Source: Candidatus Goldiibacteriota bacterium HGW-Goldbacteria-1
Lineage (GTDB): Bacteria > Oederibacteriota > PGYV01
Reading direction: 5' to 3'
NCBI GenBank assembly: GCA_002839855.1
Contig: PGYV01000001.1
Location: 229,256 to 293,255, forward strand
DNA length: 64,000 nucleotides
Both the position numbers and the translations under genes were made by a program. The notes beneath the pieces were generated by a model. The model worked only from the letters and a program-made list of their open reading frames with translations. It was not told where the DNA came from and did not search any database. This document shows positions 33,855-34,362 of this stretch, piece by piece (position 1 is the stretch's first letter; each line of letters begins with the position of its first letter).

Positions 33855-34057
33855 CAGGGGTTGGGTGTGTTTTTTCAGTGCGTGCCGCTCTAGCTCACTT
33901 TGTATACGGCAGGGACGCTTTAATGCTGCGCCGGCAAATCCGTATGTACCGCGGGTTCCGGATTGCCAATGACGTTAACACACTTAGGACTTCAAGTATA
34001 TTTGACTGCAAGAACACCAATTTGCGGCGCGCGCTGAAAAAATATACCCAAGCCCGT
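33855..34057 (+). ncRNA. Candidate structured RNA or MITE-like element, copy 1
   Basis: 32-position terminal stem 33857-33888 / 34024-34055 with 27 Watson-Crick pairs, 4 G.U and 1 mismatch; internal hairpins. Confidence 0.45.
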
Positions 34058-34159
34058 TAAAACAGATGGTCGGATGGTCGGATGCACGGATGGACGGAAG
34101 TAAAAACAAAGATAAAACAAATATTGAAAATTCGAAATTGGAAAATTAGAAGAAAACCA

Positions 34160-34362
34160 CAGGGGTTGGGTGTGTTTTTTCAGTGCGTGCCGCCCTAACA
34201 TACTATGTATGCGGCAATCCGTATATAATGCCGCGCCGGCATACATGTATGTACCGCGGGTTCCCGATTGCCAATGAATTAACATGGTTGTAGATTTCAA
34301 GCTTATTTGACTTCAAGATTACCAATTTGCGGCGTGCGCTGAAAAAATATACCCAAACCCTG
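34160..34362 (+). ncRNA. Candidate structured RNA or MITE-like element, copy 2
   Basis: 34-position terminal stem 34160-34193 / 34329-34362 with 28 Watson-Crick pairs, 5 G.U and 1 mismatch; offset from copy 1 by exactly 305 nt at both ends. Confidence 0.45.

Follow-up and report, generated by a model that had tools for sequence, protein, structure and literature searches.

REPINs are REP doublets that form hairpins (Bertels and Rainey 2011, PMC3116915). They measure roughly 70-110 nt, carry a REP tag and have a RAYT. The ERIC/IRU repeats of Enterobacteria, the Correia (NEMIS) repeats of Neisseria and the RUP/BOX repeats of pneumococcus act when they are co-transcribed with neighbouring genes, and Correia makes a TA duplication. 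Elements of the IS200/IS605 type bear small subterminal hairpins at both ends and use, as target on the 5' side, a fixed tetra- or pentanucleotide; the strand active in transposition is reportedly located on the lagging-strand template (Ton-Hoang et al. 2010). ERIC/IRU, Correia and RUP/BOX are MITE-like repeats that fold as RNA (De Gregorio et al., Delihas reviews). The HUH enzymes and their hairpins are treated in PMC6006769.

The window analysed here is a stretch of 64,000 nt from Candidatus Goldiibacteriota bacterium HGW-Goldbacteria-1 (assembly GCA_002839855.1, contig PGYV01000001.1, positions 229,256 to 293,255 of the forward strand). The original prediction, made from the sequence alone, described in it two similar elements of about 200 nt with long closing stems, and proposed that they were an undescribed structured ncRNA or an ssDNA/RNA-mobilised element rather than an ordinary DNA MITE.

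The twin elements and their surroundings

The features of the locus, in window coordinates, are the following.

33854..34058, + strand: hairpin element, copy 1, 205 nt (nhmmer 214 bits; RNA fold -85.1 kcal/mol, z -5.2)
34159..34363, + strand: hairpin element, copy 2, 205 nt (nhmmer 213 bits; RNA fold -88.5 kcal/mol, z -7.8)
33854..33888, + strand: 5' arm of copy 1, partner 34024-34058 (inverted-repeat pair; family alignment columns 1-36)
34024..34058, + strand: 3' arm of copy 1 (inverted-repeat pair; family alignment columns 175-209)
34159..34193, + strand: 5' arm of copy 2, partner 34329-34363 (inverted-repeat pair)
34329..34363, + strand: 3' arm of copy 2 (inverted-repeat pair)
33879..33884 with 34028-34033, + strand: variable covarying stem box of copy 1 (family alignment columns 27-32)
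34184-34189 with 34333-34338, + strand: variable covarying stem box of copy 2 (family alignment)
34059..34158, + strand: spacer between the copies, made of AAAAC, G-rich octamers (GATGGTCG/GATGCACG), GGAAGTAAAAACAAA and A/T-rich octamers of the GAAAATTC type
33818..33853, + strand: A/T-rich octamer module 5' of copy 1, with TTGAAG-17-TAGATA recognised by eye, ending 6 nt before the element
33770..33812, + strand: 3'-end remnant of an older copy (ATACCCAATCCCGGT), then the usual AAAGC and octamers (direct repeat)
33689..33768, + strand: left 80-nt direct repeat, made of octamers, GGAAGTAAAACAAAAAG and a REP hairpin (GTAG head on the - strand)
34367..34446, + strand: right 80-nt direct repeat, the usual downstream module of the family
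34471..37419, - strand: GH9 cellulase gene, antisense to the elements (Glyco_hydro_9, E 4.8e-79)
32972..33606, - strand: vapBC pair, PIN toxin 32972-33367 and MazE/AbrB-type antitoxin 33364-33606 (domain match)

Each element consists of a 135-nt interior between two 35-nt inverted arms. In agreement with the prediction, all the blocks shared by the two copies are offset by 305 nt (82% identity), and the ends are alike while the middles have diverged: the arms are nearly identical, with 35/35 matches between the 5' arms. The closing stems, described as 32-34 bp long, measure 32-35 bp in both copies. It had been stated that 9 of 11 non-Watson-Crick positions were G.U, and the recount gave 4 + 5 = 9 G.T pairs, with one G.G and one G.A; copy 1 has two further mismatches at the outermost end of the stem, beyond the 11 counted. 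When the - strand is folded as RNA, energies of -74.8 and -76.2 kcal/mol are obtained for the two window copies.

The modules of the spacer also flank most copies at other loci. The A/T-rich octamer module (33818-33853 and 34123-34158) is found in the window only 5' of the elements, and its TTGAAR-17-TAGAYW arrangement, recognised by eye, is unlisted in the consensus promoter scan; at 33818..33853 it may act as a promoter. G-rich period-8 arrays (GAGGGACG, GATGCACR, GATGGTCG) occur at 33684-33729, 34063-34110 and 34367-34407 of the window and in the flanks of most copies. They terminate in GGAAGTAAAAACAAA, their polarity relative to the element is fixed, and on the gene-sense strand they form C-rich, G-poor tracts resembling Rho-loading sites. 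Two older 3'-end remnants are present (33663-33690 and 33770-33790). The bracketing direct repeat with a REP, predicted at about 75 bp, is 80 nt long, 95% identical between its two copies, and composed of a G-rich octamer run and a REP hairpin; it is the usual downstream module of the hairpin family and no attachment site. The antisense position of the elements was also recovered, since the GH9 cellulase gene and the PIN/MazE-type VapBC pair both lie on the - strand.

A gene pair adjoins vapBC: the 112-aa product of one gene (32267-32605, - strand) weakly matches RepB-RCR_reg (E 2e-4, at the curated cut-off) and its 87-aa partner gave no match. On the 5' side of the GH9 gene, at 37496-37560, another period-8 array (CAGCTGGG units) is followed by REP hairpins.

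A lineage-restricted family of hairpin repeats

The arm patterns were scanned in one genome per species for 185,579 species. They were found only in the MAG JAKQNO01 ('bacterium isolate USDV_metabat.159'), which has about 35 copies, decayed ones counted. A scan with interior motifs also retained this MAG only, two matches outside the lineage being attributable to chance. One metagenome scan gave 51 contigs with the element, from activated sludge, digesters and similar sources, and DNA runs with the locus of the window come from groundwater, wastewater and sludge metagenomes. Neither the element nor a relative was found in viral contigs (one scan), plasmids and phages. Every arm match in the species genomes and in the metagenome and viral-contig scans (one each) was a short element or a fragment. 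The Rfam check (Rfam 15) revealed no known RNA family: the only match was alpha_tmRNA at 12 bits (E 0.52), at chance level and outside the elements. In total, 46 distinct full copies of the ~205-nt element were collected, 40 in alignment A1 and the others from later loci. The twins are thus members of a lineage-specific, undescribed family of small non-coding hairpin repeats.

Contig L074 of MAG JAKQNO01 is syntenic with the window (GH9 85% and vapBC 92% identical) and carries one element at the site where the window has two. The L074 spacer equivalent to window 37496-37560 contains G-rich octamers together with what is left of a 205-nt element, so the repeat content of one spacer differs between related genomes.

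Pairing of the stem is specific to the + strand

The stem was scored over 35 pairs in the 40 distinct full copies of alignment A1 and, for the later analyses, in the set of 46. In the 40 copies, the stem cells comprise 1181 Watson-Crick pairs (84.5% of the 35-nt arm cells), 146 G.T, 10 A.C and about 60 other mismatches, the latter mostly at two outer positions. On the + strand 94.9% of the stem cells are paired; about 85% would pair on the - strand. Changes on both sides of a pair were counted in 30 stem cells, against 8.0 +/- 3.9 in shuffles (0/500 shuffles reach 30), and the covariation score falls to at most half when the partner is slid by 1-3 columns. The covariation is concentrated in a box of about 5-6 bp, columns 27-32 with 179-184, in which the sequence is free and the pairing is kept. 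Pair 28/183, for example, is AU 14 times, GC 13 times, GU 10 times and AC twice.

By parsimony on a tree of the 46 copies, Watson-Crick pairs changed 44 times to G.T and 8 times to A.C, these counts being rough because recombination inflates them. The substitution spectrum of the interior (C>T 82, A>G 145, G>A 181, T>C 164) predicts, per base, about 40% of G.T, whereas 44/52 was observed (p = 4e-11). In addition, 493 transversions against 572 transitions were counted in the interior, whereas the core stem has few transversion mismatches. The + strand is the more stable one in 46/46 copies with RNA parameters (-90.7 vs -73.7 kcal/mol) and in 45/46 with DNA parameters; as both sets of parameters agree, the folded strand may be RNA or ssDNA.

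Since the G.T excess and the covariation are observed while the interior spectrum predicts the opposite bias, pairing of the + strand is under selection. The original prediction of selection on a + single-stranded fold therefore extends to the whole family, with 146 G.T against 10 A.C cells, 44 against 8 events and covariation above both controls, and the strand-specific fold of + polarity is well supported.

Two simpler origins of the wobbles were rejected. A C-to-T mutational bias on the + strand is contradicted by the interior, where C>T is counted 82 times and G>A 181 times. Selection just to disrupt the - hairpin would be served equally by transversion mismatches, and their rarity in the core stem indicates that + pairing is retained, rather than the other strand merely disrupted.

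Orientation relative to genes and replication

The elements are always intergenic and are most often found between co-directional genes. At such sites the folding strand is antisense to the genes about 17 times against 3 (p 0.003), and the flanking GC skew on the + strand of the element is negative in 21/25 cases. In the window, 32/37 long ORFs are on the - strand, and the third-position GC skew of the coding strand is +0.12 for - strand genes and -0.10 for + strand genes; by the skew of the genes of both strands, the - strand is the leading one over the whole window. Skew and orientation together place the folding strand on the leading-strand template and outside the mRNAs of the neighbours. 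The tighter hairpin may be harmful on the lagging-strand template or in mRNA, and insertions of that orientation would then have been lost.

The intergenic position, most often between co-directional genes, would suit a cis element working in the transcripts of the neighbours as a terminator, an insulator, an RNase III site or an mRNA stabiliser, a role of the kind described for ERIC, Correia and REP repeats. Read in the sense of the genes, the A-rich 5' flanks become a U-rich tract behind the hairpin, and C-rich, G-poor octamers come before it, which would be a Rho-loading site upstream. However, a folding strand outside the neighbours' mRNAs argues against such a role in them: the strand whose pairing is protected is antisense at ~17/20 sites, and the sense RNA has A.C mismatches and is about 17 kcal/mol weaker. 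Furthermore, the terminator scan of 33550-34520 found no intrinsic terminator, the tail on the + strand being AAAGC. We consider a cis role in the neighbours' transcripts very improbable.

The interior and the small-RNA reading

Arms are about 89-90% identical between copies and interiors 74%. About 45% of the interior columns are conserved at >=90% and the remainder is near saturation; this conservation is unlike pure junk and was counted against a selfish nature of the elements. RNAalifold detected no conserved fold in the interior on either strand (consensus -3.4 kcal/mol for + and -4.4 kcal/mol for -), and in the mutual information of all column pairs the subfamily signal was dominant and no interior helix emerged. 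The original prediction had also stated that internal stems are kept while their loops differ. Over the 40 copies this claim is poorly supported: CGGCA/TGCYG is paired in 81% of the cells and TCAA/TTGA in 90%, with one covarying lineage, and a third helix, GGCA/TGCC, is invariant and so uninformative. The idea of an undescribed structured ncRNA found no support, the 135-nt interior having no conserved structure and some copies being cut short or carrying nested insertions.

A small protein or a type I toxin-antitoxin repeat was ruled out as well. The sole recurrent ORF, of 35 codons, is intact in 32/46 copies, and its column entropies by codon position (0.76, 0.59 and 0.68) display no third-position excess.

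The copies could also be multicopy small RNAs of about 205 nt, closed by the 35-bp stem with its G.U pairs, transcribed on the + strand from the upstream A/T octamer module and acting for the host or for the element, for example, as a protein sponge or as antisense regulators of the converging gene. The tolerance specific to G.U and the covariation are in agreement with this, and so is the persistence of two G.U pairs. Wobble columns 14 and 16 are G.U in 35/40 and 32/40 copies (80-88%); these are inherited states and no independent events, and yet Watson-Crick pairs have not replaced them. The folding strand being antisense to the neighbours at 17 sites against 3, the fold is unselectable within their mRNAs. 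Moreover, in many copies a TTGAAR-17-TAGAYW-like module, recognised by eye, stops 6-7 nt short of the element, and conserved unpaired motifs are found in the interior.

Two further observations are on the side of small RNAs. Positional orthologues in related species differ at 30-55% of 4-fold sites, at 0-14% of the positions in the arms and at 22-26% in the interiors, so that the arms are conserved despite the divergence of the genes; these orthologues are mostly not mutual nearest relatives, which was counted for a selfish repeat, and the pattern would suit selection in place for a host function as well as it suits turnover of copies or conversion between them. Exact fragments of one copy also occur in RNA-derived assemblies: a 153-nt contig of an RNA run lies inside one copy at a depth of 12.9, similar to that of a gene fragment elsewhere, and other contigs span the spacer. 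Nevertheless, the RNA-type runs with related sequence are few, their assemblies are unstranded with patchy, low coverage, and this coverage does not exceed that of genes. Further points count against small RNAs: the interior lacks a conserved structure, the + strand has no terminator after the hairpin, and about one copy in three either has no promoter-like module or has it displaced by ~15-20 nt. Some copies are cut short, internally deleted or invaded by repeats, and Rfam gave no match. Small RNAs are accordingly a possible explanation that we rate as unlikely.

In a one-sided variant of the hairpin explanation, the wobbles are kept so that only the + strand folds tightly, while the complementary strand, which is present in mRNA and on the lagging-strand template, bears A.C mismatches. 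The folded + strand would be an RNA produced from the upstream A/T-octamer module. It would be the intermediate through which an RNA-mobilised repeat is copied, or else a multicopy RNA with a regulatory or guide function. To our knowledge, neither role has been described for such a bacterial repeat, and we regard this variant as decidedly unlikely.

Ends, flanks and proposed mode of spread

In the mosaic in which most copies are set, the element is preceded by G-rich octamers, GGAAGTAAAAACAAA and A/T-rich GAAAATTC octamers, in this order, and followed by AARGC, again G-rich octamers and, in many cases, a REP hairpin. About 8 copies are devoid of the flanking modules, and in these the homology begins exactly at ACAGGGG and ends at CCCTGT followed by AAAG. 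Among 40 copies, the 5' flanks are variable and the 3' flanks always start with AA(A/G); no repeated duplication of 2-10 nt was detected in these flanks. The search for an empty site gave no clean one, since in the best pair of loci (L147 vs L164) another repeat mosaic occupies the place of the element.

No IS with the same ends was found in the species-genome, metagenome and viral-contig scans or in plasmids and phages, an absence that is no proof because MAGs often lose IS copies. The loci examined (one MAG and metagenome contigs) yielded neither a transposase nor a RAYT or reverse transcriptase with matching ends. The neighbours are unrelated housekeeping genes, with no family present in >4/147 ORFs; among the 25 commonest families of these 147 neighbouring ORFs no RAYT recurred, a count by which a single RAYT would be missed.

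These results bear on an ordinary DNA MITE, whose 35-bp imperfect TIRs would be bound as a duplex by a transposase encoded elsewhere and whose wobbles would come from one founder. Size, inverted ends, copy number, the lack of coding sequence and the scattered intergenic sites all speak for it, as does the stronger conservation of the ends relative to the interior, and the commonest G.T positions (columns 14 and 16), common to most copies, are inherited. But the target duplication is missing, as is an autonomous partner in one MAG, 51 metagenome contigs, plasmids and phages. In addition, recognition of a duplex gives no reason for the covariation of the arms in the 27-31 box, nor for the purge of A.C and transversion mismatches while G.T spreads. 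An ordinary MITE is consequently judged quite improbable.

The reading that we prefer, with about an even chance, is that the elements are selfish, non-autonomous MITE/REPIN-type repeats that act in single-stranded form (RNA or ssDNA). The family would be propagated, or kept uniform by copy-to-copy conversion, via a single-stranded form of fixed polarity (+ in the window). In this form the arms would have to pair, so that wobble changes of the G.T(U) type would survive and A.C and transversion mismatches would be lost. Copies lie in intergenic mosaics of octamer arrays and REP hairpins. Points against this reading are the missing target duplication, the missing clean empty site and the failure to find a matching enzyme in the loci examined. 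The view of an ssDNA/RNA-mobilised element rather than an ordinary DNA MITE is the better-supported half of the original proposal; the mobility of the hairpin repeat itself is an inference.

Copy-number variation and decay of the copies

Tandem arrays are common, with periods of 249-338 nt. Two strains that are 99.8% identical have one and two copies, respectively, at the same site, and chimeric copies are present, which indicates duplication of the unit between flanking modules. The twin arrangement is thus ordinary copy-number variation of a repeat unit, and tandem pairs would arise by duplication of the whole unit, element plus spacer, between repeated flanking modules. Some copies are cut short, internally deleted or invaded by REPs.

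Other rearrangements were observed along the family. A near-identical element of 68 nt (GTTGGAGCGAGCCTGCGAAGCGGAAATCCCCGGGCTTGCGCGAGTYTRCGAGCGCAAGTGTTAGGGGAC), absent from the window, occupies two fixed sites inside otherwise diverged 205-nt copies (L019:3013-3085, L113:1245-1317, L180:2805-2876 and 2953-3025, L182, L184, L185, L186, L187 and L101:2066-2140). At the second site the same 15 nt are replaced each time, and in copies with both inserts (L101, L185) the DNA between them has seemingly been lost. Either it is a small mobile element that inserts site-specifically, or copy-to-copy conversion has spread it as a patch.

In 5'-truncated copies (L074:4460-4551; L187:6500-6720 and L177:2600-2780, both on the - strand), G-rich octamers abut the break at differing internal positions and the 3' end is intact; the G-rich octamer arrays may grow at broken ends or be added to them. 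Two strains with flanks of 91-96% identity carry the copies L019:334-539 and L161:5911-6116. The interiors and 5' arms of these copies are the same, but 4 of the 13 bases that end the 3' arm and the first downstream octamers are different, as if the 3' tip alone had been exchanged.

Comparison with described repeats and significance

This family and the REPINs (PMC3116915) have in common conserved inverted ends round a less conserved spacer and a long predicted hairpin (ssDNA or mRNA) with compensatory changes across it. Both are non-coding and extragenic, with tens of copies sometimes arranged in ordered tandem clusters. The differences concern the size, about 205 nt with a 135-nt interior here, and the REP tag, as the arms and their complements contain neither GTAG nor CGTC, nor an internal palindrome. 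No RAYT linkage was found in the loci examined, and the REPs of this genome have their GTAG on the strand opposite to the folding one.

With ERIC/IRU, Correia and RUP/BOX the family shares the form of small (100-200 nt), non-coding, imperfect intergenic palindromes that are lineage-restricted, lack a linked gene and vary less at the ends than in the middle. It differs from them by the absence of a duplication, by a folding strand antisense to the neighbours and by a much longer stem (35 bp). A strand-specific secondary structure, the lack of a terminal duplication and an orientation bias relative to replication recall IS200/IS605. Here, however, a single stem encloses the entire element, a fixed target on the 5' side was not seen, and the folding strand is on the leading-strand template, opposite to the IS200/IS605 rule, which is a point against the preferred selfish reading.

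The terminal inverted repeats, short length (~205 nt), copy number (~35 in one MAG) and absence of coding sequence are those of a classical MITE, and the hairpin of two inverted conserved ends with compensatory changes is that of a REPIN. Nevertheless, the family fails the tests that define these kinds: neither the duplication nor the partner IS of a classical MITE was found, the arms lack the REP tag of a REPIN and no RAYT was seen in the loci examined, and the family does not behave as a structured RNA gene. The nearest described kind is the REPINs (PMC3116915), then the ERIC-/Correia-type repeats, and the family is best filed as a new lineage-restricted variant of bacterial small hairpin repeats.

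On present evidence, it reveals no new RNA gene and no new enzymatic system. For Goldbacteria-like genomes, the repeat should be flagged as one that breaks assemblies. More generally, the intergenic DNA of many bacteria is full of small palindromic repeats, and the form that matters (duplex, DNA strand or RNA) has seldom been established. This family gives an unusually clean signal for one strand having to fold, and, with its marked orientation relative to genes and replication, it lends itself well to testing how repeats spread and why genomes tolerate them.
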